58,116 nt of DNA from a virus: UHGV virus genome UHGV-0195737; one strand, written 5' to 3'. Both the position numbers and the translations under genes were made by a program. This document shows, in pieces, positions 141 to 56,217 of this stretch; within the stretch, counting starts at the first letter, position 1, and every line of letters begins with the position of its first letter. Below the pieces are notes generated by a model. That model searched no databases. It was not told the origin of the DNA and worked only from the letters and a program-made list of their open reading frames with translations.

Positions 141-1643
141 TTATTCTTCGCTTCCGGTTAACTGCTTAACAAGCGCAACCAGTTCGCTAACCTGATTTTC
201 AAGATTGGTGATGCGTTCATCCATGACAGCCGCGCTAGCGCGTAAGTTGGCGTTTTCTTCCTCCAGTGCGGTAACGCGATCATCTGTTTCGCGTGCCACC
301 TGGACAAGCAGACCAGTTACTGCGGCATAGTCTACGTTAAGGTAGCGTGTTTCTTCTCGCAGTTCATGACCGCTTTGTGTCGGGCCTGCCAGTTCTTCAC
401 CGTACTGAATAAACGATCCTACCGCTTCCGGGATGGCCTCCATACATTCCTGAGCGATAACACCAGCGTAAGGCAGGCCGTTTTCTTTCAGGGTGTAGGT
501 GTAACCATTCATTTTGCGGATCGCTGCGGTGGCGTCGCTAATGACCTGGATGTTATCTTTCAAGTCGCGGTCTGAGGATTGAGATAGCGAAGTGCAAGCA
601 ACGCTACCGTTAACATTAAGGGTCTGCGATGTGTCGCTTTGACGTTGAGCGTAAAACAGATAGCCTGTTGAAAGTTTTACCTCAAAGACGCTATAGCGAT
701 CCGAACCTTCGTAACCATCACCCCAGCATTGTACATACATGTCATGGTAAGCGTTACCGCTATTCTGGAGAACAAAAGATTTACCGGACATTCCACTAGG
801 TTGCACCAAATGCAAATCACAGGTAGATGTTAAGCCGCTATCACTAAGCGTTAAAGTCTGCGATGTGCCAGTTTGCCCGCCACTGTAAAGCTGTACAGAT
901 CCGTCGTCGCCATTCAGCATTACACCTTCGCTACCTAAATAATCTTCAAACCATACCTTATACGTCTGGCTCTTATATGTGCCAAGATACCAGCCCATGT
1001 TTTTTCCGGTGGAGTCGTAACCAGTAAGGCCGCAATTCATCGCACTGCGTTTCGACGTGTCGCCGATGATATGCAAATCGCCACCACCAGATCTAACCGC
1101 TGATGTGGTAGTCAGGCTGTTGACTGTTAAGTCAGTGGATGTGCTTAGGTCGTCTGTGGTTAATAAACGCTTCCAGCCATTATCCGTGCCAGCCTCAAAA
1201 GTCCTGGCCCAAAATTGGGATAAGCGCCCGGCAAACTGAACAGCATAGTTACCGCTGAATTGAACATGAAAACCACCGAACACGGTCGGATCTGATGGCC
1301 CATTAGTGCTGCCAGCCATAGGCTTAAATTTGTTTACGTTATCGGATATTTGCCCGCTCCAATCCGCGCCAGTGTGGGTAACGTGACCGCCAGGCGAGTG
1401 AAACGTGCCGTCTTTGTTAAAGTTAAAGAATTTATGTGCGGCGGCGGTTGTGAGATCGCGAACAATTACTTGGCCCTGGTTTTCTCCTGATCTGAATTCA
1501 GCCTGGCCGATTACTGCGCCAGTCGAATCTTTGAGCTTGGAATAAAATGTATTATTAACAACATCAACCCCTTGCGCCGTGAATGAATAACCGGAAAAAA
1601 CACCCTTTTCGGCGGTCACTTTACCTTCTGTTGTAATGCTCAT
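141..1643 (-). CDS. Tail fibre protein with C-terminal intramolecular chaperone (peptidase S74-like) domain
   Basis: 500 aa; SDRDLKDNI autoproteolysis-type motif and C-terminal coiled coil; strong SD AGGGGG upstream. Confidence 0.65.
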   Translation of the reverse strand: MSITTEGKVTAEKGVFSGYSFTAQGVDVVNNTFYSKLKDSTGAVIGQAEFRSGENQGQVIVRDLTTAAAHKFFNFNKDGTFHSPGGHVTHTGADWSGQISDNVNKFKPMAGSTNGPSDPTVFGGFHVQFSGNYAVQFAGRLSQFWARTFEAGTDNGWKRLLTTDDLSTSTDLTVNSLTTTSAVRSGGGDLHIIGDTSKRSAMNCGLTGYDSTGKNMGWYLGTYKSQTYKVWFEDYLGSEGVMLNGDDGSVQLYSGGQTGTSQTLTLSDSGLTSTCDLHLVQPSGMSGKSFVLQNSGNAYHDMYVQCWGDGYEGSDRYSVFEVKLSTGYLFYAQRQSDTSQTLNVNGSVACTSLSQSSDRDLKDNIQVISDATAAIRKMNGYTYTLKENGLPYAGVIAQECMEAIPEAVGSFIQYGEELAGPTQSGHELREETRYLNVDYAAVTGLLVQVARETDDRVTALEEENANLRASAAVMDERITNLENQVSELVALVKQLTGSEE

Positions 1644-1931: not shown

Positions 1932-4900
1932 TTAAACCTTTTCGAATAATTGCCCGTCGGTTAGCGCTTTGTGCCAGATACGGAAATTGCGGATGTGTCC
2001 GAATAAGTGGCGCTCACCTGTTGATGTTTGACCGCCGAATCTGATGTTTTTGTCCTGAGTTACTCCACCGTAAGAACATGTTGCATCTGCAACGGCTACA
2101 CCATTCATGATTACATGGAAAGTATCATCATCTTTAACTACCGCACCAATAATGGCCTTATTTGGCAATACGGAAGCGGCGGCGGAATTGATATAAGCTC
2201 CGTCACTTTTGGATAGAGACATGTAATACTTATCGCTACCACGGTTAACCGCAGCGATAACGCCCTGCCCCGTATTAGCGTTGGCAATATCAAAAACACG
2301 CGGCGCGGCGTTTGGCGCTCTGAACCAGTCCTTGTGAAGCTCGATCAGGAAACTGAACGGAGGACGCGCAAGGTTGTTTTTAGTCGTAATGCTTACTAGA
2401 TCGCTCGCACGGGTAGAAGGAGTTGAACCTGAGCAAATATACGATGATGCATTCGGGCCAAGCTCGACTTGAGGTGTCGCTAGTTCCATGTAGTCGCCGG
2501 ACACGAACGCGCTAACCGGAGCAAGCTGAATTTGTGCAGTAACCAGCGTTACGGTTGATTTATACGTCACCACTGCGCGATTCCATCCGGTGATGTTGTC
2601 TGTTGTTACACTAACAGTGATATTGTCTGCACCGCCGCCTGCTTTCGTTACAGTCATGTCGCTTAGTTTGATATACGCATCACACAGGAATGCCAGGCTG
2701 GAAGTATCTTCACCACCAGCAAAACGGATACGCAACCGGACGTCGCTTGACGAACGAAAACGACAAGAAACCGTGACGTACTGTTCATCGTGCTGAGTAG
2801 TGTCGATAACGTTAGCAGTGATCACTGATGCCATGTTGCAAGCACCAGTACCGCCAACTGCACTGTCGTCGATCACGAATTTTCCGTACAGGAAACCGTA
2901 GCTGTCAGTTTCTGCTGTAGCGGTGATATTAGTTGATCGGCCCCAACTTGCAGGAACGCTACCGTTAATAAAGAAGTTTGTGCGAGTACCTTCAATTAAT
3001 AATCCCTCGCGTTCGAAACGTGGCTCATCAATATCAGCAATGGTTAAAACACCGGATTTATTAATATAAGTCGCAGTGCTGGCGCGGGCGAAGCCCACCA
3101 CTTTATCCGACGGGATGGATGTGGTTTCGTCGTTAACCGTTACTTTCTTATAGCCAGGAGCGAAGCCTGCCAGCATATCAAGTGAATCGTTAAACGGTAT
3201 CCATACGTCAGGAAATGGTGCTTCTTCATGAATAAGTGGATCGGATTCGAATTTAGCCCAATCCGTCCAGGTTTCCAAATTGGCGTAATAGGTGCGCATG
3301 TAATACAAACCCGTCGAATTGTACGGGTAATATAATTGCGTGGCCCCGTTTGTATAGTTGCCGTTTTTCAGTACAACCAGTGCACCACCATATTTGCATG
3401 GGTAATGCAGTTCGGTTGTTGCTTTTGATGATGCGCCCTGCCAGTAAACACCGGAATAAGCGGCGGTAAGCGTATCCAGATCGGTGTCAGCTAGTGAGCT
3501 TTTTTGTTCGTGCATAGCGGCAAGGTTGGTGCGGGCCGTGGCTGCATCGTTTGCACCTGTACCACCATGTGATAAATCAAGCGGAATCCATTTTGATTGA
3601 GTGTCGCTATAACAGCCCCACGATGTTCCAGTAAGCCCTAAACGCATAGATGAATCTGCGTTATATACCCAGGTTTCACTACCCCATTGAGCAAGGCGAT
3701 CTACTTTTAAGTTTTCTCTTGCTTCGTCGACTGTTACAGCCCCTGTGCCGCCCTGTTCAATAGCTAACGCCTTCCAGCAATTATCAACCGGACTGTAATA
3801 ACCCCAGCGGCCCGTCGCGTCGAGCTGAAGATAGCACCCTGCTGTCGAGTCGTCCATAGAATAAACTACTGTCCGATTGCTGCCGCTTTGATTAAATCGA
3901 CTAACCTCATTTTTTCTTGCGTGTCGCGTCCATTGTGGGCCAGTGCTTTCACTCCAACGATAAGTATAAAGCGAGCGTGTCCCCCACCCCTGGAAAATGC
4001 CTGTATATGATGGCGAACCATCGTTTACGCTAATGAAGCCTGTTAGATATGCTTCACCGTCCGCGACGTCTTCGGGCCATCCGGTGACGCCTTCGCGAAT
4101 ACGAATAAAGCCAATGTAAGCGGCGGGATTGCCGGAAATATCGGCGCAATCGCGCGGGGCGTTAGTTAGACCAATGTCACCCAATAACACACCAGAACTA
4201 AGAAAACGCGCCCATTCTGACCATGTGAAAGTTGCCGCATCAAAACTACGAAGATAAAACGAAGCATTATAGTTATAAGGGTAATAAATTTGCGTGCATC
4301 CAGAATCAGTATTAGCACTATTCCCAATCACAACAAGCGCACCCGCATTATTGCACGGATAATGGCGATCAGTAGTAGCTTGCGCGTTGAGTTTTTGGCG
4401 ATAAAAACCGGAATACTCGCCCGTGAGCGTATCCAGATCCGTGTCAGCAAGATCGGTTTTTTGCTCGTACATTACTTGTAAATTTGTGCGGGCTTGTCCG
4501 GCGTTACCGCCGCCCGTACCACCATAATTGATGCCTAACTTAATTGCCCCATCAACTGAATAAGCACCCCACCCCGTATTATTCACGAAGATGTAATTTT
4601 GGCCCACGCCGTCCCATAACTGCGTTTCGCCTGTTGAGTTACTCGTCTGCAATAAGCGGCTTACTTCATCCTTCCGGGCGTGACGTGTCCAGCCGTAAGT
4701 CCCATCGGCATTGTTATACATGTATGTATAAAGTGAGCGCGTGTTAGTTCCCACAAAACAGCCGTTAATGATCAGGCCGTCACCGCGTGCCAGCCAGCCT
4801 ACCAAGTAGACTTCACCGGAAGCGATAGACGGGAAACCCGTTGCGGTCGCCTCTTCCAGACGAACAAAGCCAATATAGGCTGATGGGTTAACTGTGCAAT

Positions 4901-5909
4901 CAGGCCAATCACGGCGATCAGCACCCAGGCCAATAAGAGATAGTGAATCTTCTGATAGTGATTTTGCTTGCTCCATGTAGGTTTTGGCGTTCGCTTCCGA
5001 AAGTGCGGCGGCGGTGGCTGATTCTGCGGCGGCGGCGGCATTAGCTGCAATTTCTTGTTCGTCTTCTGCAACATTGGCGGCGCTTGTTTCGGCAGCAGTG
5101 GCGGCTTCTGTAGCGATGGTGGCTTGTTCGGTTGCTGTGGTCGCTGATTCTGCGGCGTTATTCATCCAGATGTACGCCGTGCCGCGATGATCTTTTGCCT
5201 CTGCGGCGGCGGCCGCGGCGGCGGTGGCTTGTTCGGTCGCTACGGCTGCCTGTTCAGTTGCGACGGTTGCTTGCGCGGCGGCTTCGTCACGGGCCGTTTC
5301 GGTAGCGGTCTGCGCGGTCTGCGCGGCGCTGGCGGCATTAGTGGCGATGGTGGCTTGTTCGGTTGCCGTGGTCGCCTGCGTGGTGGCGGTGGCGGCATGT
5401 TTCCCAGCCAGTACGCTGTAATCTTCTGCGGCATTTTTCGCGGTAATAGCTTCATCCCGCGCGGCGGCGGTTGTTTCAACGTCTGCGGCGGTCGCGGCGG
5501 CGTTGGCGTTTGATTGCGCTGTTTCTGCCTGAATAGCGGCTAACAGTGCTTCAACCTGCGCGGCATCACCATAATTTTTCCAGTATTCGACGGCAGCATA
5601 GATCTCTGATTCTTGTCCGGTGAAATAGCGCAATGCCTCCGCTACGTCCTGGGCCAGCCCGTCAACCGAGATCGAATCGCACAGCAAAATACTGTAAGCA
5701 GTACCCGCCGGAATATCCGGTGATGCTGCCGGGGTTACAGACAATTCCGTTTCACTGACAATTTCAGTGATAGAAAAGATCTGAATGGGGTTACTTTTTA
5801 CGATAACAGTACACCCCACGCGGATCATGGATAGCGGCGCTTTAAAATTCGTACCCGTCCCGGTCAGCGTGTTACCGGATACGGCAATGCTTCCAATGGT
5901 GTAGATCAT
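1932..5909 (-). CDS. Long tail fibre protein, repeat-rich
   Basis: 1325 aa; Ala/Thr/Gln-rich low-complexity segment; two tandem copies of a ~250-aa module (TRHARK-EVSR, HYPC-GALVV-YYPYN). Confidence 0.65.
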   Translation of the reverse strand: MIYTIGSIAVSGNTLTGTGTNFKAPLSMIRVGCTVIVKSNPIQIFSITEIVSETELSVTPAASPDIPAGTAYSILLCDSISVDGLAQDVAEALRYFTGQESEIYAAVEYWKNYGDAAQVEALLAAIQAETAQSNANAAATAADVETTAAARDEAITAKNAAEDYSVLAGKHAATATTQATTATEQATIATNAASAAQTAQTATETARDEAAAQATVATEQAAVATEQATAAAAAAAEAKDHRGTAYIWMNNAAESATTATEQATIATEAATAAETSAANVAEDEQEIAANAAAAAESATAAALSEANAKTYMEQAKSLSEDSLSLIGLGADRRDWPDCTVNPSAYIGFVRLEEATATGFPSIASGEVYLVGWLARGDGLIINGCFVGTNTRSLYTYMYNNADGTYGWTRHARKDEVSRLLQTSNSTGETQLWDGVGQNYIFVNNTGWGAYSVDGAIKLGINYGGTGGGNAGQARTNLQVMYEQKTDLADTDLDTLTGEYSGFYRQKLNAQATTDRHYPCNNAGALVVIGNSANTDSGCTQIYYPYNYNASFYLRSFDAATFTWSEWARFLSSGVLLGDIGLTNAPRDCADISGNPAAYIGFIRIREGVTGWPEDVADGEAYLTGFISVNDGSPSYTGIFQGWGTRSLYTYRWSESTGPQWTRHARKNEVSRFNQSGSNRTVVYSMDDSTAGCYLQLDATGRWGYYSPVDNCWKALAIEQGGTGAVTVDEARENLKVDRLAQWGSETWVYNADSSMRLGLTGTSWGCYSDTQSKWIPLDLSHGGTGANDAATARTNLAAMHEQKSSLADTDLDTLTAAYSGVYWQGASSKATTELHYPCKYGGALVVLKNGNYTNGATQLYYPYNSTGLYYMRTYYANLETWTDWAKFESDPLIHEEAPFPDVWIPFNDSLDMLAGFAPGYKKVTVNDETTSIPSDKVVGFARASTATYINKSGVLTIADIDEPRFEREGLLIEGTRTNFFINGSVPASWGRSTNITATAETDSYGFLYGKFVIDDSAVGGTGACNMASVITANVIDTTQHDEQYVTVSCRFRSSSDVRLRIRFAGGEDTSSLAFLCDAYIKLSDMTVTKAGGGADNITVSVTTDNITGWNRAVVTYKSTVTLVTAQIQLAPVSAFVSGDYMELATPQVELGPNASSYICSGSTPSTRASDLVSITTKNNLARPPFSFLIELHKDWFRAPNAAPRVFDIANANTGQGVIAAVNRGSDKYYMSLSKSDGAYINSAAASVLPNKAIIGAVVKDDDTFHVIMNGVAVADATCSYGGVTQDKNIRFGGQTSTGERHLFGHIRNFRIWHKALTDGQLFEKV
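4990..5520. repeat. GC-rich tandem coding repeats inside fibre gene
   Basis: Repeated GGTGGCTTGTTCGGT-type units encoding AT(E/A)QAT-like repeats. Confidence 0.5.
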
Positions 5910-6068: not shown

Positions 6069-6308
6069 ATGAAAGGTTTAAAAAATATCGCTATCGCTGC
6101 AATGGTTGCTGGTCTGGTTGGTTGTGCTGATATGCCAAAACGTGAATGTACAGCAATCTATCAAACTGGCGGTAATGAATATGCGGTTGCAGTCTTTGGC
6201 GTTGCAGATGTTGGCGGTCACAAAATGGTTAAGGCCGGGTATCCGTTCAATTTCCAATGGGTGAGCGTTGACCACTTCAAGAAAACGGATTGCCCGGAAC
6301 TGAATTAA
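6069..6308 (+). CDS. Small lipoprotein (moron; possible superinfection-exclusion lipoprotein)
   Basis: Start moved to internal ATG with SD GGAGGG; signal peptide with lipobox LVGC; opposite strand to flanking tail genes. Confidence 0.5.
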   Translation: MKGLKNIAIAAMVAGLVGCADMPKRECTAIYQTGGNEYAVAVFGVADVGGHKMVKAGYPFNFQWVSVDHFKKTDCPELN

Positions 6309-6904
6309 TCATAGGCGTCGGTTTTAATGGCGGTGATAGCGTTCCCGTGGTTAATGTAGCTGTAAGCCTGCTGCAAGCTACCAACCTGTTTTCCGCGAAT
6401 TCGTGTAGTGCTGCCGTTGTAGTATGCCTCTGTATATATTGTTGCAGAACCCATACCTACAACGGCCCCTAATATCTGAGGCACTACCGCATAAGATCCT
6501 GATAATGTTTGATCGATATAAATCCCCCCGCTCGATCCCGCCGTGCCTACTGTAACAAGGTCGGTTAATATTTTTGATTCATTGGTCAGTACCAATTCCC
6601 CGGAAGCGTTCCAGATAGCCATCCCCCATCTCGGCAGCGATGGCGGGAAGATGCTGAATATATACGCATACCCGTTACCAGGCGGGATCACTACCGTAGA
6701 TGATGATGCGCGATAAGCAAGCCCCGTGGCGGTGTCGTCGGTGTTTTTGATGAATACCATTACAGGCTTGCCGTCGGGTACAGCGATCGTTTGTTGCTGG
6801 CTGGAATTTAAGGCCACCCGCGAATATAAACACATCGGGGTAGAATCCGGCGTCACAAAAATATTGCCATTATCCAGGCGTAAATAAGCGCCAAAAGTAG
6901 CCAT
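6305..6904 (-). CDS. Hypothetical tail-associated protein (MATFG family)
   Basis: 199 aa; shares N-terminal MATFG with the next gene; SD ACGGAG. Confidence 0.4.
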   Translation of the reverse strand: MATFGAYLRLDNGNIFVTPDSTPMCLYSRVALNSSQQQTIAVPDGKPVMVFIKNTDDTATGLAYRASSSTVVIPPGNGYAYIFSIFPPSLPRWGMAIWNASGELVLTNESKILTDLVTVGTAGSSGGIYIDQTLSGSYAVVPQILGAVVGMGSATIYTEAYYNGSTTRIRGKQVGSLQQAYSYINHGNAITAIKTDAYD

Positions 6905-7215
6905 TATGCAATCTCCGTAAAAATAATCAGGTCACATTGTGATGCGGGCCATATATCAGCCCCTACCGTATCCCCTGCTGAGGAAATGGAAACAGTGCCG
7001 CCGGAAATACTAATCTTTCTGCGCGTTGACGATGTTGTACCATAATCAAGCGCCACGCCATAAGATAATTTGCACCCGGTTGGAACGGTAAAAGAATATG
7101 TGCCGGATACTTGCCCGGAAGACAAGGAAATATAGCCAACCACGACGGAAGGTTTGATTCCATAGTTATTAGGATTGCCGTTGGCGTCCCAGGTCGCTAT
7201 GCCGAAAGTAGCCAT
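6904..7215 (-). CDS. Hypothetical tail-associated protein (MATFG family)
   Basis: 103 aa; strong SD AAGGAGGTGA; paralogous N-terminus to 6305-6904. Confidence 0.4.
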   Translation of the reverse strand: MATFGIATWDANGNPNNYGIKPSVVVGYISLSSGQVSGTYSFTVPTGCKLSYGVALDYGTTSSTRRKISISGGTVSISSAGDTVGADIWPASQCDLIIFTEIA

Positions 7216-7265
7216 AATTTCACCTCCTTAATAAAACTGAGGCCGAACAAGTCGGCCCCTTGATT

Positions 7266-10200
7266 TTACCATGATCCGGTAATTCGCCCAATCTGGACGC
7301 GTAACACGCTATTTCCATCTCTGACAGAGATTGTTGTGTTCGTCCATTTCATCGCTCCTTCACCGCTTACTGATCCGTAGTTTTCGAATGTACCGGATTT
7401 ATCCAGCTTCCAGCCAGTACTACCGGAAACATAGTTATTTGACTGGATGTAAGATCCAATTTTCGCGTTAGTGATTGAGGCGTCTTTAATAAACGCTTCG
7501 CGCACATACATTGCACCATTTGTGACATAGAAAGGCGTTGTATATGTGCCGTTTGCCGCTGTCATTAATACAAAGCGGTCAGCAAGGAAAATACATTGCG
7601 ATTGCGTACTCGTACCGCTGCCAGTCAAGCCAAGCGAGATCCCGGAAAAATATTTCATGCCGTTGTTGTCTGCGGCGATCTTAACGCTCCACGTTGCCGA
7701 CATGTCGGTTTCAAGGCCAGCGATGGCGGTTTTATTTTCCTCAATTGATACCGATTGCCCCTCGATTGACGCCGTAATACTTTCAATCTGCGTGGCGGTC
7801 GATTCCTTATAGGTTGTAAACGCTTCGCTCCACTCCGTGATCGACGCCTCGTTTGCTTCCAGCGATGCGCTAATTTCCGCAAACTGAGTAGCATTAGCTT
7901 GTTCATGGGTGGCAAGCGCGGATTGCATTTCGGTAATAGCTGCCGCCACATCGTCGTCTATTTGCGCCTGTAGTTGCTCCAGCTTCTGCGCGGTTGCTTG
8001 TTCATTGGTTGCGATCGTCTGATTAGTTTCAGTGATTGCAGCCTCATTCTCATCAATCTGACTTTGCAGGCTATTAAACTGCGTAGCGTTGGCTTTTTCG
8101 TGGGTAGCGAGTGCTTGCTCCATGTTGCTTATTGCTGACGATATATCACCATCTACTTTAGCCTCAAGGTTGCTAATAGATTCAGATGTGGATGATTCCA
8201 GATCGGTGATCGTCTGGTTAATCTCCGTTATGCTTGCCTGAATATCTTCGTTGACCTGGCTTTCTAATTTTTCGATCGACTGGCTTGTCGAACTTTCAAG
8301 CGTTGCAATGGTTTGTTGCAGTTCGGTTACGTTGGCGCTGATTTCGTCATTGACCTTGCTTTCGAGTGTCGTAAGCGCCTGCGCGGTCGCTTCTTTCTCT
8401 GTAGCGATCACAGTGTCGATGCGCTCAATCTCCGCCTTCGTTTCTGCTTTCTGGTTTTTATACTGTGCCGTCAACGTGGTGCGCGTGCTGGTGTTAGCCA
8501 GTGAGTTATTCATAAGCGCAATAGCTGCGTTTTGCAGGCTGGCGCGTGTCTGGATTAGTTCATTTTCCTGTTCAGTTAACTCGACGCTGATTTCGTTGAT
8601 CTGGCTTTCATGTTCTCCAATTCCATCCTCATTGTTTTTCACGCGTTCTTCCAGGTCTGCGGTCGATTCTTTCAGATCGGTAACAGCCTGGTCAATATCT
8701 ACCGTGGTTTGTTTCAGTTCTTCCACATCGCCCATCAAGCCGCCTGTTACCTCGTCGATGGTTTCTTTAATCATGTCCTGAAATTGCTCACCCTCCATAA
8801 CTTCATTCAGCACGGCATCCGTGATTTCTTCGAAGTTTTCGGACGGCTTACCACTGGCTTCGATAAAGTCAGATACGCCGAAAGCGTTTTTTGTGCGCAC
8901 GTAAACGTAATACGTGTGGCCCGTTGCCATCCCGCCAAAAGTCCACTGATAGCCGCGCCCGGAAAATTGCGCTGATGTTGTTACCAGTGAGAAGTCAGTA
9001 ATCTGGTTTTCTCCAGCGTAATAGAATTCGTAAGTAGTATCAGTCGTTAGCGTGCTGTTGCTGATCGGGTAAACAGTCGCCTGAAAAACACCTGGCACCC
9101 AATTAACACCAGTCGGCGCGGCAGGCGCACCAACAATAAGATCTACCAGTGTTTCCGCTCCCTTCATCCCGGTGTCATTGCGCCCACGAATACCAAGCGA
9201 ATAATTACCGCACTCAAGGCCGAAAAAGTCATACCGGTAATTTTGCGTTTCGTAGCTCGCCACCACGCGCCCGTCGGTGTCATAAATGCGGATCTCAAAG
9301 GTTAATGCGCGGGTAGTGGTTTGAGTTTCCCAGGTGGCGCGGCATTGAACTGTTTCCGATCCAATGTTTATCACTTTCAGGTTTTCGATGTTCGGTACAC
9401 GGAAGTGATTCAGCGTGTCGCTGTTAACCTCAAAGATTGCGCCCTCATCGACAACCGCTTGCTTGTTCGGATCGTGCTGCGCGGCCTCAATGGTGTATAC
9501 GCTGTTATTTTCGGTTTCGGCTACGCTAGTGATTCGACATAAAACGGGTTTTGCCGCTTCGGTTGATACAGCAAATACAGTACCGTTCCGAATCCATGCC
9601 GGGGCCGCCGCTAAGGTGATCTCGTTTCCATTCACTCCGGTGATCTGGTGTTTTTTAAATTTACCATCGCTATCGAGCAAGCTGATGGTGTCGCCTGCCG
9701 TAATGTACTCGCTATCAACCTTATCAACCGTTATCACGTTCCCGTTATTCGCCACGATACGACCGCCTAAACGCGCGCCAGCACGGTTATTATCGAGAAT
9801 CTCGATAATATCCCCTGGTGTAAAGTGAATCGCGTCACGGGCCATTTTAAACGTGAATTTCGACGGCTCGCGTTTTGCTGTTTCTATCAGCCATTTGCCC
9901 GCGCGGTACGCTTGCCCGCGTGATGTACAGCCGAACGCCTCCAGTGTGGTTTCATTGTAACCATCGCGGGCGATTAGCTCATCATCCGCTACATACTCTT
10001 TTGATTGCTCCCAGCCGTTTTCCGGATCAGTCCAGGATACAATCACGGCGTTGTAACATTCCGCACGCGCAATGCTTGAACGGGTGAATGCACCATCAAC
10101 GACGTTTGCGTTTGTGATGGTTGCAATCGGATCTTGCGGTGCATCGAGCATTACAGTAAGTGTTTGACCGTCCCATAACGCAATCCCCCGGAACATTCCG

Positions 10201-11243
10201 GCAATGTTGTCCAGTAAGTCGCGGGCGCTCATTTGCTCCGTAATGTATGCATTAAGCGTCACGCGCGGCTCAAGGCCGCCATAACCATCGTCAACCAACT
10301 GATCGCAGTATTGGGAAAGCGTGTATAATGCGCCGTCGTCAACGTCAATATAACCAGCATGGCGGGCAAGGCCAAAACGCTCGTTTTTAACCAGATACCG
10401 GAAGATCCACGCTGGGTTATTGGTGTACACCTGTTTCATCCCGCCCAGCCATAAACCGGAATAAGTGCGCGTTTCCGGATCGTAGTTATCCGGTACATCA
10501 ACAATCAGGCCACGCATGTGATAAGTGCGTGTCGGCGTGTCGGTATACTGGTCATGATCAATCACCGCGCCCGCTACAGCGGTGTGAGGATAAGACAAGT
10601 TATCGTCGATAATTTCACTGTAGCTATTCCAGCGGGTATCATTCTGCAATAGATCGCCCGTGCTGTCAGGTGTTATGCGGCGAACGCGAATATCGAACGG
10701 TTTTTCGTCCGGCGCATCAATGATGTGTGATTCCAGATATTCACCGCTAATCTTACCCGGACCGATTTGCACGGCCTTAATCGCCGACCAGATTGATGAT
10801 GATGATGGTTTTACATCAATCGCCATAAAAACTGATGTTTCATGCTGGTTTGATTCGCTGTCACTTTCCACCAGTGAATCCACGCCAATATTCAACCGGA
10901 CGCGCGTCACGTTCGGATCTGATACCGTCCTTACCAGTGGCGTGTCATATTTCACCTGCGCGTTAACCATTACCGTAGATTCAATGGCGTTGAAGCCGTT
11001 GATCGGTGACTGGTCGGCAGTACCCGGACGCCAGGCGACGCTAACGCCTGGGATACTGGTATTACCCACGGCATCCGTAACAGGTGTGTCATTAAGCATT
11101 ACGCAGTTTAACGGGGCAGCGGTATTGACCGGACCGTAAATCGGCCCTTCACTCAATATATCCAGAACCCGGTAAAATTGCTTATGAAATAAATTGTCGT
11201 TTATTAATGTTGGTGTTTTTGCTTTACCACCGCCGCCGCCCAT
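7266..11243 (-). CDS. J: Host specificity / tail tip protein J-like
   Basis: N-terminus matches lambda J as recalled (DxxSEGPIxGPV, NDTPV); long central coiled-coil repeat region; position after I. Confidence 0.8.
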   Translation of the reverse strand: MGGGGGKAKTPTLINDNLFHKQFYRVLDILSEGPIYGPVNTAAPLNCVMLNDTPVTDAVGNTSIPGVSVAWRPGTADQSPINGFNAIESTVMVNAQVKYDTPLVRTVSDPNVTRVRLNIGVDSLVESDSESNQHETSVFMAIDVKPSSSSIWSAIKAVQIGPGKISGEYLESHIIDAPDEKPFDIRVRRITPDSTGDLLQNDTRWNSYSEIIDDNLSYPHTAVAGAVIDHDQYTDTPTRTYHMRGLIVDVPDNYDPETRTYSGLWLGGMKQVYTNNPAWIFRYLVKNERFGLARHAGYIDVDDGALYTLSQYCDQLVDDGYGGLEPRVTLNAYITEQMSARDLLDNIAGMFRGIALWDGQTLTVMLDAPQDPIATITNANVVDGAFTRSSIARAECYNAVIVSWTDPENGWEQSKEYVADDELIARDGYNETTLEAFGCTSRGQAYRAGKWLIETAKREPSKFTFKMARDAIHFTPGDIIEILDNNRAGARLGGRIVANNGNVITVDKVDSEYITAGDTISLLDSDGKFKKHQITGVNGNEITLAAAPAWIRNGTVFAVSTEAAKPVLCRITSVAETENNSVYTIEAAQHDPNKQAVVDEGAIFEVNSDTLNHFRVPNIENLKVINIGSETVQCRATWETQTTTRALTFEIRIYDTDGRVVASYETQNYRYDFFGLECGNYSLGIRGRNDTGMKGAETLVDLIVGAPAAPTGVNWVPGVFQATVYPISNSTLTTDTTYEFYYAGENQITDFSLVTTSAQFSGRGYQWTFGGMATGHTYYVYVRTKNAFGVSDFIEASGKPSENFEEITDAVLNEVMEGEQFQDMIKETIDEVTGGLMGDVEELKQTTVDIDQAVTDLKESTADLEERVKNNEDGIGEHESQINEISVELTEQENELIQTRASLQNAAIALMNNSLANTSTRTTLTAQYKNQKAETKAEIERIDTVIATEKEATAQALTTLESKVNDEISANVTELQQTIATLESSTSQSIEKLESQVNEDIQASITEINQTITDLESSTSESISNLEAKVDGDISSAISNMEQALATHEKANATQFNSLQSQIDENEAAITETNQTIATNEQATAQKLEQLQAQIDDDVAAAITEMQSALATHEQANATQFAEISASLEANEASITEWSEAFTTYKESTATQIESITASIEGQSVSIEENKTAIAGLETDMSATWSVKIAADNNGMKYFSGISLGLTGSGTSTQSQCIFLADRFVLMTAANGTYTTPFYVTNGAMYVREAFIKDASITNAKIGSYIQSNNYVSGSTGWKLDKSGTFENYGSVSGEGAMKWTNTTISVRDGNSVLRVQIGRITGSW

Positions 11244-11255
11244 AATAACCCCCTA

Positions 11256-11786
11256 TTAACTTACAACGTCTAAGGCGTCTTTATTGTTGGTTGTATCAAT
11301 ACCCAACGATCCAACGTTCGACCCGATTTTCATTTCGCCAAGTAAAATTGGTACGGGTCGGCCTTGCCCTACTCTGTTTTCTACACTGGTGTAACTGTTG
11401 TTTGTAATGCTGTTATCCTGCGCACTTTCTGCTGATGTTTTCACTTTCATGTTTCGGGCCATAAAAATTGAAAACGCAATACTCGCAACGGAAAGGCCAA
11501 TTAACAGCCAGCCAACCACCCCAATCCCTGCAATACCACCTTCTACCACTGGCGCAACAATAATTGTTGTTCCGTCGGGATATTCATTATTAACGGCGGC
11601 TGGCGCGGTTTTCGCGTCGTAATCCTTTCCGGCAATCCGTAACCGTAATGGCGTACTTAAAAACGCCCGTTTAAATTCCTGATTCTGCGCGGTCAATAAG
11701 CGAAGCCCCTGCGCAGGTGTATTGACGTTTAAACACACCTTGCTGAAATATCTTCGAAGATTGCCCGTAAATCTAAATTTGAGCAT
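11256..11786 (-). CDS. I: Tail assembly protein I
   Basis: 176 aa, hydrophobic glycine-rich centre, overlaps K 3' end as in lambda; position between K and J. Confidence 0.55.
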   Translation of the reverse strand: MLKFRFTGNLRRYFSKVCLNVNTPAQGLRLLTAQNQEFKRAFLSTPLRLRIAGKDYDAKTAPAAVNNEYPDGTTIIVAPVVEGGIAGIGVVGWLLIGLSVASIAFSIFMARNMKVKTSAESAQDNSITNNSYTSVENRVGQGRPVPILLGEMKIGSNVGSLGIDTTNNKDALDVVS

Positions 11787-13299: not shown

Positions 13300-13467
13300 A
13301 TGAACGATAAGCTATGGCGGCTAACCTTGTTTATGAGTAGCGGGCGTGATGTTGAGGCTGAATTCGATAATCCCAGCGACGCATTGGAAACAGCTCTCGA
13401 CCTGTCAGAAAAAGATGATCGCGTCCTGGGCTACCGGATTAAACCGATTAAAAACGGGGATCAGTAG
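13300..13467 (+). CDS. Hypothetical small protein (moron cassette b)
   Basis: 55-aa ORF, not in ORF track; SD AAAGGGG; first gene of plus-strand cassette. Confidence 0.4.
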   Translation: MNDKLWRLTLFMSSGRDVEAEFDNPSDALETALDLSEKDDRVLGYRIKPIKNGDQ

Positions 13468-13468
13468 G

Positions 13469-13819
13469 ATGCAAAAATATAAGCTCGAAGTGTTTACGGA
13501 TCGGTGCAATTGGGAATGTATAGGTTTATATGACACAGACGTTAAAGCACATACGGAAGGGCGAGAACTGCTGCGATGTTGGTCTAATGCCCGCGACTAT
13601 GTGGTCACTCCAGTACAAATAGCGGAAAAGGTGGAAGATATGAAATACGATATTGATAACAATGCTTGTTTTAAAGAAAACCTTGCGGATTCTATGGATC
13701 AATCTTGCCCGGAAATACACGCGCACGGTTTCCCGGCAGACGACCCGAAAGCAAAACAGGAATACGAAAAAGCGGCAAAAGATTTCTGCATCGATAACCT
13801 GGGCGCTTTCAATAAATAA
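13469..13819 (+). CDS. Hypothetical protein (moron cassette b)
   Basis: 116 aa from internal ATG of track ORF 13346-13819; coupled to upstream ORF. Confidence 0.5.
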   Translation: MQKYKLEVFTDRCNWECIGLYDTDVKAHTEGRELLRCWSNARDYVVTPVQIAEKVEDMKYDIDNNACFKENLADSMDQSCPEIHAHGFPADDPKAKQEYEKAAKDFCIDNLGAFNK

Positions 13820-13828
13820 GGTGGCAGT

Positions 13829-14077
13829 ATGGCGCGGCGTAATCACGGAGACTATGTATACACGTTGAAACAAGCCGCCCGCCTTATCGGTTATCATGAG
13901 CACGAATTTATTGATTTGCTGATTGAGCGCGGGATTTTGTACCAGGTCTGTTTAACGCTGTACCCGAAAGCGAAATATTTGCAGGAAAAGTTATTCATCA
14001 TCATGACGGATGAAAACCAGGTTAATCATTCATTCGTCACTGACAAGGGCGTTAATTATCTGCGTGATAACCTGTAG
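13829..14077 (+). CDS. Putative small DNA-binding protein (excisionase/HTH_17-like)
   Basis: 82 aa; YTLKQAARLIGYHEHEFIDLLIERGIL resembles Xis/AlpA-type HTH. Confidence 0.4.
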   Translation: MARRNHGDYVYTLKQAARLIGYHEHEFIDLLIERGILYQVCLTLYPKAKYLQEKLFIIMTDENQVNHSFVTDKGVNYLRDNL

Positions 14078-46450: not shown

Positions 46451-47098
46451 TTATGGCAGGTTTACGATCTTTGCATCCACCACCACGCCAATAATTTTTG
46501 ATTCAGGGTTTAGCGGGATTGGTGGGTACAGCGGATTAAGCGAACGTAAAAGCCTTTGACCTCCATCAATGATTAACTGTTTAAACGTCGGCGTTTGCCC
46601 TTCCTCCAGTTGGGCTATAACCAGTTTGCCGTCAATAGCTGGCGCGTGCGGATCGACAAGTATCATCGTCCCTGCCGGGATACTTAATCCCTGCGGTGCG
46701 TTCATTGACTCACCTTTTGCGACCAGCCAATAACTATCATCCGAACAAATCACGCTCGTGTTAACGTGTGGTAGTAATGCGCGTTTTGCTTCTTCCATGT
46801 AGTTTCCTGCGTCTTTCCAGTCAATAACCGGATAACGTCCCACGTCGAGCGGCGGCGCTCCCGGCAACGTATTTGAAACTGAATCATCGATAACCATCCC
46901 GTCATGAGTGACCGTAAACTGCCGACGACCAAGCGCCCGCATAATCCGCGCAATATCTTCAAGATTTGGCTCGCGGCGACCATTCAGCCAGTGAGATAAG
47001 CCGCCTTTTGTGATCCCCATGAGATCCGCCAATGAATCCTGGCTCATGCCTTGCGCCCGCATGAGTTGTTTTGCTAAGTCATACCATTTTGTTTTCAT
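46451..47098 (-). CDS. CI-like repressor (HTH plus LexA-type S24 peptidase domain)
   Basis: N-terminal HTH (QDSLADLMGITKGGLSHWLNG); C-terminal AKGESM serine motif and downstream Lys. Confidence 0.75.
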   Translation of the reverse strand: MKTKWYDLAKQLMRAQGMSQDSLADLMGITKGGLSHWLNGRREPNLEDIARIMRALGRRQFTVTHDGMVIDDSVSNTLPGAPPLDVGRYPVIDWKDAGNYMEEAKRALLPHVNTSVICSDDSYWLVAKGESMNAPQGLSIPAGTMILVDPHAPAIDGKLVIAQLEEGQTPTFKQLIIDGGQRLLRSLNPLYPPIPLNPESKIIGVVVDAKIVNLP

Positions 47099-47126
47099 AT
47101 CGCTACCCTATCGCCCTAAAAAGTTT

Positions 47127-47222
47127 GATGCAAGTCACAAAATGTATTTTTCAAGCCTTGACCGAAAAACACCATTCTGTAAACTTGCAGACAAGGTAAA
47201 GCCGGACTTGCAAAGACGCAAG
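47127..47222. promoter_or_regulatory. Operator/divergent promoter region
   Basis: Inverted repeats TCAAGcCTTGA, CTTGcagaCAAG, CTTGCaaagacGCAAG, plus TGCAAGTCA/GACTTGCA pair. Confidence 0.4.
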
Positions 47223-47265
47223 AAAAAAGATGAGGGAATAGCACAAAAAGGCGCATACCTTAAAA

Positions 47266-47298
47266 GCTCTTTAAAAACCTGGTGTCGCTGCGAAGCGA
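47266..47298 (+). promoter_or_regulatory. nutR-like site (boxA + boxB hairpin)
   Basis: GCTCTTTAA then 10 nt then TCGCT-GCGA-AGCGA hairpin, upstream of the first plus-strand gene. Confidence 0.4.
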
Positions 47299-47405
47299 AA
47301 AACAAATATCACGCAACGGCGGGATCTGTTGAGCGGTCAATCACTGCTACCTAATGCTAATGGGATACCCGCCCGCGCGTTCATTTTAACCATAGGAGAA
47401 ACACA

Positions 47406-47660
47406 ATGAGTATGCACATGATGAATGAGGCTTGGAAAGTGGAACTTAACAGCCCGATTCAAAAACTTGTCTTAATGGCTCTGGCTGAAAAGGCAGATAA
47501 TCGCCGCCACGCCAGGGTATCACACCAAGAAATCGCAAAAATGTGTGAAATTCCTGTAAGTACGGTGATACTTGCTATCAACGGATTAACACACAAAGGA
47601 TTTATTTGTAACCCTTACCCGGTAAATGACGTTTACCTGGTAATGCTGCCGGAGGAATAG
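47406..47660 (+). CDS. Winged-helix regulatory protein (Cro/CII position)
   Basis: 84 aa; HTH-like segment SHQEIAKMCEIPVSTVILAINGL; first gene of rightward operon. Confidence 0.45.
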   Translation: MSMHMMNEAWKVELNSPIQKLVLMALAEKADNRRHARVSHQEIAKMCEIPVSTVILAINGLTHKGFICNPYPVNDVYLVMLPEE

Positions 47661-47662
47661 AA

Positions 47663-48775
47663 ATGAAGTGGTTTAAGCATGATAGCGATGCGAACCGCGA
47701 TGAAAAACTTCAAAACGTTTTGCTTGATTATGGCCTGGAAGGATACGGGCTTTATTGGTATTGCATCGAGTTAATAGCCTACGAAGTAGATCAACATAAT
47801 CTGACATTCGAACTAAAACACGATGCAAGAATCATTGCCCGGAACGTAGGATCAAGTCCGAAACGTGTAGAAGAAATGATGAGATACTTCATCGAAGTTG
47901 GCTTGTTCGACTGCTCACATGGCGTTGTAAGATGCCTGTCGTTAGCAAAAAGACTTGATCAATCAATGGCTTCGTCAAAAAGCGAATTTAGAGAGGCAAT
48001 TAAAAGGCTAAACGTCAAAAAAAATAAAAAGTTAGATAATCCTTTAGTGGAAGTAAATAATTCACCAGATACAGAAAAAGAAAAACCATGGCACAACCAT
48101 GATGCAGCCATGGCACAACCATGGCACAACCATGGATTAGAAGTAGAAGTAGAAGAAGAAATAGAAACAGAAGAAGAAAAGAAAAATATAAAAAGAAAAG
48201 AAGTCAATCAGGACGGTGACTTTCAGATAAGCGAATCTGCATTGCGTTGCCTGGCTTTCTACAACGAAAAGGCAGGATGCAAATGTCGTGATACTAAGCC
48301 ATTCATCGAACTACTGACAGAAACAAAAACACGTAAGGCATACACGGAGGATGAGATCACATTAGTAATTGAGTGGGCTTTGACGCAATGGCGTAGCCGT
48401 GGTGGAGTGCCTAAGCCTGTTAACATTTGCCGGGTAACTAAGTTTGATGGGTATCTGGCTGATGCTGAACAATGGCGCAAGCTGTCAGCTACTGTAAACG
48501 CTGCCGACGTGGTGGAAGCATTTAACAGCACGTTTGACGGCCTGTTACCACCTGCCGAACTGGATCGGGATATTGAACGTAAGATCCATTCGCTATCTGA
48601 CTACCTGAAAGACAAAAGCGTTGACAGCTTTATTGCTTACTTCCAGAAATTTAAAGCTGATGCGCCGAACTTCTATTTCGGTGAGAATGAAAGCGGCTGG
48701 CTGGCTGATATAGATTTTCTGTTGAAGCCGGAAACGCTCCGCAAGACGCGTAACTTCCAACATATACCATCATGA
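47663..48775 (+). CDS. Replication initiation protein (replisome organiser-like)
   Basis: 370 aa; N-terminal phage replisome-organiser-like region; iterons plus AT-rich tract inside the gene; upstream of DnaB. Confidence 0.6.
   Translation: MKWFKHDSDANRDEKLQNVLLDYGLEGYGLYWYCIELIAYEVDQHNLTFELKHDARIIARNVGSSPKRVEEMMRYFIEVGLFDCSHGVVRCLSLAKRLDQSMASSKSEFREAIKRLNVKKNKKLDNPLVEVNNSPDTEKEKPWHNHDAAMAQPWHNHGLEVEVEEEIETEEEKKNIKRKEVNQDGDFQISESALRCLAFYNEKAGCKCRDTKPFIELLTETKTRKAYTEDEITLVIEWALTQWRSRGGVPKPVNICRVTKFDGYLADAEQWRKLSATVNAADVVEAFNSTFDGLLPPAELDRDIERKIHSLSDYLKDKSVDSFIAYFQKFKADAPNFYFGENESGWLADIDFLLKPETLRKTRNFQHIPS
48086..48200. repeat. Putative origin: iterons plus AT/purine-rich tract
   Basis: CCATGGCACAA x3 plus degenerate copy, then GAAGTAGAAG...AAAAATATAAAAAG. 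Confidence 0.45.
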
Positions 48776-48899
48776 ATTACCAAAAATCCAAAATTACCCA
48801 CAAAACAAGCTCACCAGCGAGCTAAATCGCATTGGGTGCTACACTTGCTTACCTTTTTGCGATTAGCTCGTCAGAGAGCGTTACAGAGAGGATTTTAAA

Positions 48900-49001
48900 A
48901 TGGACGGTAAACACGTTTTCGCCCTGGCTTTTGCCATCGCTGCGGCAATCGCTGTTAACGTCGCCTTGTTCGGCGGTTTGTTCCTTCTAGTCAATCCATA
49001 A
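48900..49001 (+). CDS. Putative hydrophobic microprotein (33 aa)
   Basis: MDGKHVFALAFAIAAAIAVNVALFGGLFLLVNP; SD GAGAGG. Confidence 0.3.
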   Translation: MDGKHVFALAFAIAAAIAVNVALFGGLFLLVNP

Positions 49002-49133
49002 CCTACCTACCAGTCTGTAAATCGAAAATTAGCCACCTGATAGCGTTTCTGACGCAATAAGACACTGCAACCTGTGCAAACGGGTTACGCGGTGGGATTT
49101 TTGCGTTGTAGCGCGTTTTACGGAGAAATTACA

Positions 49134-49904
49134 ATGTCTGAATTAATGGTTTTTGATAACGTTAAAATGAATAGTATTGAAATTTCAGAGTTGGTTGGTA
49201 AGCGTCATGATAACGTAAAACGCACTATCGAGACGCTTGCTAATAATGGGATTATCCGACTTCCTCAAATTGAGGTTTTCGGAAAAATCAATAACTTAGG
49301 ATTGATTCGTGGCGTGGACGCTTACGTTTTTGAAGGGGAGGAAGGCAAGCGAGATAGTATTATTGTGGTCGCACAGCTTTGCCCTGAACTTACGGCGCGG
49401 ATCGTTGACCGCTGGCAGGAACTTGAAAACGCAGTCCGGCAAAATGCTGTTCCAAATTACGGTAACACACAGATCAGTAATGTTCTTGCTTTTGCTGAAA
49501 CGGCGGGCCGAATGCTGAATATGAGTAATTCAGGTAAGTTAGGTATGCTACAGAAGATTGAGAAGGAATATAATATTCCTCCTATCCTTCCGCATTACGC
49601 TATTGACGCTCCTTCTGATGCTGTGGACGGATCAAGCCGCGTGACCAAATCACTGACAGCATTGTTAGAAGAAAATAACGTTGGCATGACTGCGCGTGAA
49701 GTTTACCCAATCCTTGAACGCAAAGGCATTGTCGATCGCAAGTATCGTAAAGCAAAATGCGGAGAAAAAAGATTCTGGAATGTAACTGTGTATGGTCTGC
49801 GATACGGAAAAAATATAACCAACCCATCTAATCAGAGAGAAACACAGCCGCATTTTTATGAATCAAGATTTAAAGAGTTATTGAATATTATTTTTTCTGA
49901 ATGA
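49134..49904 (+). CDS. Rha-family phage regulatory protein
   Basis: N-terminal SELVGKRHDNVKRTIETL matches Rha family signature; SD GGAGAA. Confidence 0.6.
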   Translation: MSELMVFDNVKMNSIEISELVGKRHDNVKRTIETLANNGIIRLPQIEVFGKINNLGLIRGVDAYVFEGEEGKRDSIIVVAQLCPELTARIVDRWQELENAVRQNAVPNYGNTQISNVLAFAETAGRMLNMSNSGKLGMLQKIEKEYNIPPILPHYAIDAPSDAVDGSSRVTKSLTALLEENNVGMTAREVYPILERKGIVDRKYRKAKCGEKRFWNVTVYGLRYGKNITNPSNQRETQPHFYESRFKELLNIIFSE

Positions 49905-49937
49905 GTATACATTCCGTAAACCGGAGGAAATAACGTT

Positions 49938-51056: not shown

Positions 51057-51074
51057 ACCGGAGGCGACGCCATA

Positions 51075-52496: not shown

Positions 52497-52575
52497 TTAA
52501 CTTGAGTAAACGGCTTACCGGAAAGCTGACCGCTTTCTGGTGGCTGTTTTCGCGCTTAAATCGAGGCTAAAAACA

Positions 52576-53103
52576 ATGAAAACCACTTATAAAACACAAA
52601 TAGCGAATTTTTTACAGGATGCTACTGTCGCGGGTGAAGCAACAATCATTAAATCTATTCCAGGTCCTGAAATCGAGATTGTTAACAGTTTGCGTGATAT
52701 GGTTTCTGACGGCGCTATTATTCCTGTGGAAATGGGAGGACCACGGTTATCATATTGCTTGAAGTCAGTGCGCGAAATGGCAATAAAAAAAATCATGCCT
52801 TTATTTCTGAATAGTAGCGATTATTTTTCTGCTGAGGATGTTAAGAAGAAATTAAAACTCGAAATAAAACAGAGAAAAATCTGTCGGGTTTTAAAGATGT
52901 TAGGTAGTGAAAATTTATTAACTGTCAATAAATTTGACGGGAAATATTTTTTTAGATCAGCTCGCTTCTATGGTTGTTCAAGTCCTATCGTATTTGAATT
53001 TAACAGCCGCCTGAACGAATACCGGAAAAATAACGGCTTGTTACCGGATAAACCAGCATTTGAAATCGAAAAACTTAACGGTGAAACGGGGTTAGAATTA
53101 TGA
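52576..53103 (+). CDS. Hypothetical protein (AT-rich accessory gene)
   Basis: 176 aa from first ATG; markedly AT-rich relative to flanking replication genes. Confidence 0.4.
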   Translation: MKTTYKTQIANFLQDATVAGEATIIKSIPGPEIEIVNSLRDMVSDGAIIPVEMGGPRLSYCLKSVREMAIKKIMPLFLNSSDYFSAEDVKKKLKLEIKQRKICRVLKMLGSENLLTVNKFDGKYFFRSARFYGCSSPIVFEFNSRLNEYRKNNGLLPDKPAFEIEKLNGETGLEL

Positions 53104-53306: not shown

Positions 53307-53315
53307 GGGGGAGTT

Positions 53316-54117: not shown

Positions 54118-54131
54118 CTGAGGATAAGCAA

Positions 54132-56181: not shown

Positions 56182-56195
56182 GTTTCCCCCTTCGT

Positions 56196-56217
56196 TTTGG
56201 TCACGTTTTGGTACACA
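56196..56217. repeat. Right copy of imperfect 22-bp direct repeat (putative att-associated)
   Basis: TTTGGTCACGTTTTGGTACACA, 15 bp from int start. Confidence 0.3.

Follow-up and report, generated by a model that had tools for sequence, protein, structure and literature searches.

A lambda J-like central tail fibre in UHGV-0195737 with a long repeat-built stalk, no fused receptor-binding domain and a predicted downstream receptor-binding cassette

Introduction

How does a siphophage reach its receptor when its central tail fibre stops short of any fused receptor-binding domain? The question is raised by one gene of the virus genome UHGV-0195737, a stretch of 58,116 nucleotides (nt) that is called the window below. 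The gene is a single open reading frame (ORF) of 1325 codons on the minus strand, and its product is a homologue of lambda J in which a lambda-like N-terminal part is followed by a long alpha-helical stalk, a central straight fibre (CSF) block and a short conserved tip; two small genes and cor lie just downstream. Our analysis points, with a probability of roughly 0.7, to a trimeric central fibre protein that belongs to the mEp021 ('mEpimmI') group, in a temperate siphophage or a prophage, and leaves receptor binding to separate proteins.

Much of what such a locus implies is already known, namely J proteins that lack a receptor-binding domain (RBD) and carry a long alpha/beta C-terminal fibre (T1 gp33, HK022/HK75), the downstream cassette of receptor-binding proteins (RBPs) and Cor, the repeat-rich J of the mEp021 group, and the fold-switch idea developed for F-type pyocins. 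Specific to this locus are the combination of an mEp021-group J with a tip and cassette of the T1/HK022 type, and a clean unit-wise length change of a motif-bearing stalk.

Results

Domain organisation and genomic setting of the J homologue

A PHROGs search assigned the protein to phrog_31, 'central tail fiber J' (E=0), and lambda J was its top match among the sequences of solved structures (E 3e-184). Congruently with an earlier note on this DNA, which had claimed that the N-terminal ~800 amino acids (aa) follow lambda J, residues 1-827 pair with lambda J 1-834 (E 1.8e-183); a second block pairs residues 1180-1256 with lambda J 858-934, and between the flanking aligned blocks lambda J has ~24 residues where the homologue has ~350. 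The Pfam scan identified FNIII-A_GpJ (PF24801, E 1.4e-34) and Phage-tail_3 (PF13550, E 1.2e-29), and PF24421, PF24489 and PF09327 each scored above the curated cut-off. Judged by its sequence, with a hub that can be aligned to lambda J and two Ig/FNIII domains followed by PF09327, the protein is a member of the J family, and its lambda-like hub with the two FNIII/Ig domains would close the tail tip.

In blastp comparisons, residues 1-815 are 88-92% identical to mEp021-group phages and related prophages, 39% to lambda J and 29-31% to HK75 and PeterMerian. The J gene outside the stalk is 80-82% identical to mEp021-group phages, and positions 11244-36000 of the window, which hold 24.7 kb of structural genes, are 64-82% covered at 81-84% nt identity in seven phages (MagusPhagus, mEp554, mEp010, mEp044, mEp021, mEp013 and mEp515). 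Homologues of L, K (NlpC/P60) and I lie upstream of the J gene on the same strand (Pfam returned no family for the gpI-like protein), and further upstream lies the gene for a 780-aa tape measure protein, so the J gene stands in the expected place of a siphophage tail module.

The C-terminal end

We modelled J residues 817-1325 as a monomer with AlphaFold2 from a 71-sequence alignment, with a mean predicted local distance difference test (pLDDT) of 72. The alignment was built from a homologue search with the C-terminal 509 aa, which returned mostly partial proteins of <900 aa and was not used to count architectures. With Foldseek, the model hit 8xcj_F, the central fibre of lambda (E 2e-4).

After PF09327 just 21 residues are left in the J homologue. 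PF12421 (Ig_GpJ_C), the lambda receptor-binding domain, was not found in it at E <= 0.1, whereas the same scan on lambda J returned PF09327 at 845-972 and PF12421 at 1001-1132 (E 4.5e-74). Together with the alignment to the lambda J domains, this bears out the earlier description of a J-like end without a lambda-type receptor-binding domain. The J proteins of Ecol_244 (1350 aa), HK75 (1183 aa) and PeterMerian/Bas05 (1192 aa) likewise end 21 aa past the CSF block, and over the last 70 aa they share 97%, 76% and 73% identity with the homologue, respectively. Moreover, the last 144 aa find a match in T1 gp33 (1172 aa, PDB 9l9p_S; E 5e-48), which terminates in ...RVQIGRLTGSW. Because three other J proteins stop at the same position and T1 gp33 shares the tip sequence, the end of J is native and not a truncation.

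The opposite possibility, a decayed J gene of a defective prophage from which a deletion or an early stop codon had removed the receptor-binding domain, could be argued from the nearest phage relatives, since past PF09327 the J proteins of MagusPhagus (1478 aa) and mEp554 (1828 aa) carry 143 and 124 residues, respectively. We regard such a truncated pseudogene as highly improbable and effectively refuted: to the shared end position and tip sequence are added 1325 codons without interruption, a downstream cassette that is intact and translationally coupled, and a remaining structural region syntenic with viable phages. The short conserved tip that replaces the receptor-binding domain would serve as an adaptor on which the products of the two small downstream genes dock, a putative attachment site for separate receptor-binding proteins.

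Origin of the tip and the cassette

MagusPhagus and the mEp phages have been described as the 'mEpimmI' group, in which J varies in size, with 'repeats of different length', then a conserved stretch and last a variable terminus regarded as the part that touches the receptor (PMC11893012). The C-terminal end in the window has other relatives. Ecol_244 shares 86% identity with it over the CSF block but only 36% over the stalk. The DNA resembles that of E. coli prophages of the Ecol_244 type, which carry cor (82-88%), from window position 5900 to ~7685 and no further, which places the crossover at about J residues 1186-1200, the stalk/beta-prism boundary. Moreover, the tips are 73-97% identical while the hubs of HK75 and PeterMerian are only ~30% identical, so the tip travels with the genes that lie downstream and not with the rest of J. 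The CSF, the tip, the small genes and cor would be swapped between phages as one module. At least a few prophages of E. coli, among them Ecol_244, have this arrangement of tip and cassette; text searches of PMC11893012 found no Cor-like lipoprotein or Cor-type cassette in its description of the mEp021 group.

The downstream cassette

The first two genes of the cassette encode proteins of 103 and 199 aa, homologous to HK022 p24 and p25, and the ATG of the second overlaps the stop codon of the first. In tblastn searches the 103-aa gene was found in 345 phage records, always beside the 199-aa gene, and the latter in 347. Phages with both include Drexlerviridae, Dhillonvirus and Hendrixvirinae (e.g. 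HK75, HK542, mEp213), together with Klebsiella T1-like phages and ES18. In HK022/HK75, Drexlerviridae and Dhillonvirus, this cassette follows J genes that lack an RBD. The HK75 record annotates gp21 and gp22 as 'similar to HK022 p24/p25' and places cor after them, PeterMerian and Ecol_244 have the same gene order as HK75, and an E. coli copy of cor with 87% identity is labelled 'phage exclusion lipoprotein Cor' in RefSeq.

No signal peptide, lipobox or transmembrane stretch was found in either of the two small proteins. Pfam has no family for them or for Cor, PDB sequence searches with the two returned nothing at E <= 1, and a literature search on the function of HK022 p24/p25 found nothing relevant. 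The AlphaFold2 model of the 199-aa protein is a soluble all-beta structure (pLDDT 89.8, predicted template modelling score 0.86). Foldseek against the PDB gave a best E of 0.32, without a solved structural relative, and the BFVD matches of the model are uncharacterised phage proteins only (from Pectobacterium and Proteus phages, Xanthomonas phiL7 p23 and Pseudomonas phages). As modelled, the fold is widespread among phages, and no structure of it has been solved. Its family alignment combines conserved ends with hypervariable internal loops.

A motif of the form F/W-G-x-A-x-W-D/N-A-x-G, predicted to be a beta-hairpin, occurs three times in the cassette: both small proteins have it at the N-terminus, and the 199-aa one again at residue 92; three copies for a three-chain fibre tip are suggestive. 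A pseudo-trimer of three homologous domains, one being the 103-aa protein and the others the halves of the 199-aa protein, was considered and is not supported: BLASTP and profile-profile comparisons align only the 12-22-residue N-terminal motif, with hhalign probabilities of 0.5-52%.

Receptor binding

Precedents for a separate receptor binder come from several studies. From the BASEL collection it was proposed that dedicated RBPs attach non-covalently to the J-like protein, that they are encoded directly downstream of gpJ with exclusion proteins, and that their alleles match receptor specificity (PMC8594841). Comparative genomics of >100 phages, a larger set, confirmed this correlation and tied receptor identity to the downstream families and not to J, with AlphaFold3 models in support of binding, named a FhuA-specific family and reported that the C-terminal tip of J co-varies with the locus (bioRxiv 10.64898/2026.04.02.716166). 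In the case of an LptD allele, the downstream protein has been seen bound to the receptor (bioRxiv 10.1101/2025.07.07.663478).

By analogy with these systems, receptor binding is probably delegated to the two small downstream proteins and not to the large side fibres. The earlier note had also proposed delegation, and with this cassette and a J without RBD that part is probably right; the large downstream fibres (1932-5909 and 141-1643) to which it assigned the role are not the likely delegates. In the proposed mechanism the two HK022 p24/p25 homologues, and neither J nor the side fibres, would bind the terminal outer-membrane receptor, while the large downstream fibres would give reversible primary adsorption.

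Phages T1, HK022 and ES18 are FhuA-dependent. So are JLBYU41, JLBYU37 and Teewinot (PMC10373560), and these three are among the hits of the cassette genes, as is a Tunavirus record. Because the cassette includes Cor and matches T1, HK022/HK75, ES18, JLBYU41 and Teewinot, FhuA is the most likely receptor of the phage studied here.

Several points weigh against delegation to a FhuA-binding pair. PHROGs names the families of the p24/p25 homologues 'outer membrane protein' and 'membrane associated protein / moron', and the 199-aa model lacks a solved structural relative that would indicate its function. That the two are virion proteins and that they bind FhuA are both predictions. Those mEp021-group phages that have been characterised recognise LamB or OmpA by means of a fused J terminus (PMC11893012), which makes FhuA an extrapolation from other phage families. 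Finally, the conserved tip could itself contact the receptor. The small proteins would then be non-structural, whether accessory proteins, chaperones or membrane proteins (morons), in line with their PHROG names; a tip that is highly conserved among FhuA-using phages would also suit direct binding to a receptor that is itself conserved, and J is treated as the RBP of FhuA-dependent phages in PMC10373560.

We find binding by the J tip unlikely. The small proteins lack the signal peptide, lipobox or transmembrane stretch of a membrane protein, the 199-aa protein is confidently predicted to be soluble, and conserved ends with hypervariable loops are what would be expected of a receptor binder. 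Moreover, the 21 residues past the CSF block are too few for a receptor-binding domain, receptor identity follows the downstream families in the >100-phage comparison, and the LptD-allele protein binds its receptor directly.

The helical stalk and its repeats

Residues 821-1175 hold no proline at all and have the composition E14/A13/T12/S10/I9/Q9 %. The AlphaFold2 model has helices at its residues 3-213 and 218-329, which correspond to J 819-1029 and 1034-1145, and directly after them, from J 1149 on, long beta-hairpins of 12-14 residues. Composition and model thus agree with the long Ala/Thr/Glu/Gln-rich coiled-coil region of the earlier note, which had placed it at ~7650-8700; its DNA lies at ~7809-8789. 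The stalk is presumably a trimeric coiled coil, the trimeric state being assumed from homology. Its hydrophobic period peaks at 3.61 residues, that is ~9 core positions per 32-33 residues in a mix of heptads and hendecads. The strict heptad stalk that had been claimed was rejected, as the power at period 3.5 is near background. The long helical segment had also been called an insertion, and here it is better seen as an expansion of lambda's own AHS module (residues 809-861; PMC11101478): with ~330 residues in about ten units of 32-33 residues, the stalk is an enlarged lambda AHS bundle. If helical, ~323 residues at 1.5 A per residue would span ~48 nm. For T1, whose C-terminal part is shorter, AlphaFold3 gives ~37 nm (PMC11945409); the paper on the mEp021 group, PMC11893012, contains no fibre dimensions against which to check the predicted length.

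The repeat is seen in both protein and DNA. BLOSUM autocorrelation of the stalk protein peaks at lags 33 and 65 (z ~8 vs shuffles, 8.5 at lag 33), and identity autocorrelation of its DNA at lags 99 and 195 (z ~6 vs codon shuffles). The units are on average ~25% identical in aa and ~42% in nt. Tandem Repeats Finder, run over 7000-11500, reported no repeat in the stalk, and a direct-repeat search there recovered only 36-38-nt copies, 61-75% identical and 96-99 nt apart. The stalk repeat is real but old and degenerate, so that the statement that the stalk is clearly repeated at the DNA level stands for the period and fails for the likeness of the units.

The stalk is ~95% identical to that of RM9245, an E. 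coli prophage in which J carries a domain fused to its C-terminus. The sole large difference between the two is a clean 32-residue gap opposite residues 1043-1074 of the window protein, which equals one repeat unit. Among close relatives the stalks measure 328, 360, 381, 384 and 750 aa, the shortest being that of RM9245 (J at 7467-11738 of L005) and the longest that of mEp554 (J at 3136-8622 of L002). Stalk length would evolve through the gain and loss of entire repeat units. A helical stalk of 750 aa would exceed 100 nm, comparable with the ~130-nm tail reported for mEp021-group phages.

A fold-switch motif in the stalk

In the F7 pyocin fibre, a 163-residue coiled coil at the equivalent position turns wholly into a beta-prism and opens the tip; the pattern SxSxxMxxLxS was defined for each F7 strand, and similar switches were predicted in phage fibres (PMC12874032). 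The lambda AHS is a three-helix bundle between the FNIII domains and the CSF that partly becomes beta-structure upon LamB binding (PMC11101478). In the stalk of the J homologue we counted 18 hits of SxSxxMxxLxS, against 3.4 +/- 1.8 in composition-preserving shuffles, a 5-fold enrichment that none of 5000 shuffles reached. Between residues 937 and 1158, forward and reverse copies alternate at a spacing of 15-18 residues, one each per 32-33-aa unit. The motif was not enriched in two other helical proteins of the window, the side fibre with its Ala-rich coil and the tape measure protein. Relatives' stalks are similarly enriched, those of HK75 and PeterMerian included, and all the stalks from RM9245 to mEp554 are also proline-free. 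In addition, residues 928-1188 of the F2 pyocin fibre align over the stalk plus the CSF (E 2e-27), and AlphaFold2 makes strands of the last two motif-bearing segments (J 1149-1175).

The motif pattern fits a coil-to-prism switch seeded from the adjacent prism, without proving it. As a more tentative step of the mechanism, the stalk may be a metastable coiled coil that refolds to a beta-prism after receptor binding, seeded by the neighbouring beta-prism, with a shorter fibre and an opened tail tip as the result. Three points tell on the other side. The motif control consisted of shuffles and the two helical proteins of the window and not of a large set of unrelated coiled coils. The AlphaFold2 monomer gives helix and not beta-prism for nearly the whole stalk, which is no direct support for a second conformation. 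Stalk lengths of 328 to 750 aa among close relatives are compatible also with a passive spacer.

Such a spacer, semi-rigid and setting the reach of the tip (e.g. through O-antigen or capsule) without large refolding, would leave the rest of the interpretation as it is, and we consider it a fair but less likely alternative. Wide length differences would suit it, whole-unit changes keep the frame as a tolerant spacer would, and the model is a plain long helix of moderate confidence. Against it stand repeats in which SxSxxMxxLxS alternates, when neither the side-fibre coil nor the tape measure protein exceeds chance, and a motif register that continues into J 1149-1175, the segments modelled as strands. 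The homology to F-type pyocins bears on it as well, as the F7 homologue has been seen switching (PMC12874032) and the lambda AHS converts in part (PMC11101478).

Joining refolding with delegated receptor binding, we can sketch a fuller mechanism, which is tentative and rather doubtful as a whole. The stalk would be a modular metastable 'spring' in which each 32-33-aa unit is a beta-hairpin of a latent beta-prism, and the small proteins bound at the tip would trigger a zipper-like refolding from the CSF seed. The fibre would contract from ~45-50 nm to <10 nm and pull the tail tip to the membrane, with a stroke length tuned by the gain and loss of units (328 to 750 aa). The three N-terminal hairpin-motif copies of the small proteins would dock on the three J chains as an asymmetric cap that fits a threefold fibre to monomeric FhuA.

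Feature coordinates, hairpin and side fibres

The features of the locus are collected in Table 1.

Table 1. Positions in the window of the J homologue gene, its parts and the neighbouring features; residue numbers refer to the J protein unless another protein is named.
Feature	Position	Strand	Basis
J homologue gene, central tail fibre / tip attachment protein	7266..11243	-	ORF list and translation; 1325 aa plus stop
Tail-tip hub part, residues 1-607 (FNIII-A 88-214, Phage-tail_3 335-492)	9423..11243	-	Pfam; blastp of residues 1-815
Two Ig/FNIII-like domains, residues 608-811 (Ig_J 608-707, Ig_J_second 709-811)	8811..9422	-	Pfam E 3.7e-16 and 1.5e-31
Alpha-helical stalk, residues 819-1145, counterpart of lambda AHS	7809..8789	-	AlphaFold2 helices; proline-free; hydrophobic period 3.61
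Repeat array, residues 906-1158, 32-33-aa units each with forward and reverse SxSxxMxxLxS; candidate fold-switch region	7770..8528	-	motif hits, autocorrelation, unit indel
CSF / beta-prism block PF09327 Phage_Tail_Tip, residues 1167-1304	7332..7745	-	Pfam E 8.6e-43, 2-138 of 139 model positions
Conserved C-terminal tip ...RVQIGRITGSW, residues 1256-1325	7269..7478	-	identity to Ecol_244, HK75, PeterMerian; T1 gp33 match
GC-rich hairpin (8-bp stem) then T-run; possible attenuating terminator	7239..7259	-	sequence; terminator-like scan
103-aa protein, HK022 p24 / HK75 gp21 homologue	6904..7215	-	phrog_557 E 2.7e-28
199-aa protein, HK022 p25 / HK75 gp22 homologue; candidate receptor-binding protein	6305..6904	-	phrog_425 E 2.5e-49
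cor, 79-aa superinfection-exclusion lipoprotein, lipobox LVGC	6069..6308	+	phrog_1119 E 1.3e-23
Large side fibre, 1325 aa, C-terminal Laminin_G_3 (ConA-like lectin) domain	1932..5909	-	PHROG tail-fibre family; Pfam
Second fibre protein, 500 aa, C-terminal S74 intramolecular-chaperone domain (Peptidase_S74)	141..1643	-	PHROG tail-fibre family; Pfam

The hairpin sits between the stop codon of J (7266-7268) and the strong Shine-Dalgarno sequence AAGGAGG of the 103-aa gene (ATG at 7215). It may attenuate read-through and so lower the dose of the small proteins relative to J; its function is uncertain because the count of terminator-like hits in the region is not above shuffle expectation. In mEp554, a terminator is annotated at the end of the J gene.

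The large side fibre has the same length as J by coincidence, and an Ala/Thr/Glu/Gln-rich segment at about residues 100-330. By eye it seems to hold two similar modules of ~270 aa, from ~335 and ~610 ('...NPSAYIGFVRLEE...TRSLYTY...WTRHARK.EVSR'); a self-BLAST of the protein at E 1e-5 did not report the duplication. Within 141-1922, on the minus strand, the gene of an 88-aa protein (phrog_1361, function unassigned there) precedes that of the 500-aa S74 fibre, which suggests a branched or two-part side-fibre system.

Discussion

The protein described here shares its domain order (hub, FNIII-A, two FNIII/Ig domains, AHS, CSF beta-prism) with lambda gpJ (PDB 8iyk, 8xcj; PMC11101478), but the AHS of ~50 aa (809-861) in lambda compares with ~330 aa here, and lambda ends in the LamB-binding PF12421 domain, which is missing here. 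With T1 gp33 (PDB 9l9p chain S; PMC11945409), as with J of HK022/HK75 and of Drexlerviridae such as PeterMerian (Bas05), it has in common the hub, two FNIII domains, a helical stalk, the CSF and a 21-aa tail ending in ...RVQIGR(I/L)TGSW, with no fused RBD; as in the records of HK75 and PeterMerian, genes for a ~100-aa and a ~200-aa protein plus a lipoprotein follow. It is set apart from HK75 and PeterMerian by its hub, to which theirs are only 29-31% identical, and by a stalk of ~330-360 aa compared with ~210 aa, and the genome here is of the temperate mEp021 type, neither T1-like nor HK97-like.

Like the J proteins of mEp021, mEp554 and MagusPhagus (PMC11893012), the homologue has a long repeat stalk, the same flanking tail genes and a closely similar N-terminal part (88-92% over residues 1-815). 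Unlike those of mEp554 and MagusPhagus, with their fused variable terminus of 124-143 aa past the CSF, it stops and is followed by the p24/p25/cor cassette instead. The F-type pyocin fibres F7 (PMC12874032) and F2 (PDB 25vf) are homologous over stalk plus CSF and share the alternating SxSxxMxxLxS; their C-terminal end and receptor-binding partners differ, and the motif region, 163 aa in F7, a tailocin fibre seen to switch, is ~250 aa here, where it is a candidate switch in a phage. In logic the locus also resembles T5 pb4/pb5/Llp, a trimeric central fibre with a separate non-covalent FhuA-binding RBP and a receptor-blocking lipoprotein (bioRxiv 10.1101/2022.06.28.497910). Unlike in T5, Cor and Llp belong to different families, and no sequence or fold relationship of the 199-aa protein to solved structures, T5 pb5 included, was detected.

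These findings do not overturn current understanding. They point to a T1/HK022-type module of docking tip, separate RBPs and Cor that has joined, at the boundary of stalk and beta-prism, the J of another, recently described gut coliphage group, and they predict FhuA, a receptor so far unreported for the mEp021 group. The locus would illustrate the transfer of receptor specificity, in the form of a cassette, from one phage family to another. Moreover, the stalks of the window and its prophage relatives, all with the proposed fold-switch signature, vary by entire repeat units and could serve as a natural series for testing the coil-to-prism mechanism in phages and the role of stroke length.

Two further parts of the window stood out. 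At 13346-14077, amid the minus-strand tail genes, there are plus-strand ORFs of at least 80 aa, and in two relatives small annotated opposite-strand genes lie in the equivalent place between the L- and M-like tail genes (14486-15278 of L004 and 14892-15668 of L001), one of them annotated as a KilAC-domain antirepressor; the arrangement resembles a moron island set into the tail operon. At the right end, positions 56001-58000 have a G+C content of 36.6% vs 44-52% elsewhere, and the best E. coli prophage matches to 47000-58116 reach only to about position 55200; this low-G+C end could represent inserted foreign DNA or the border of the phage.

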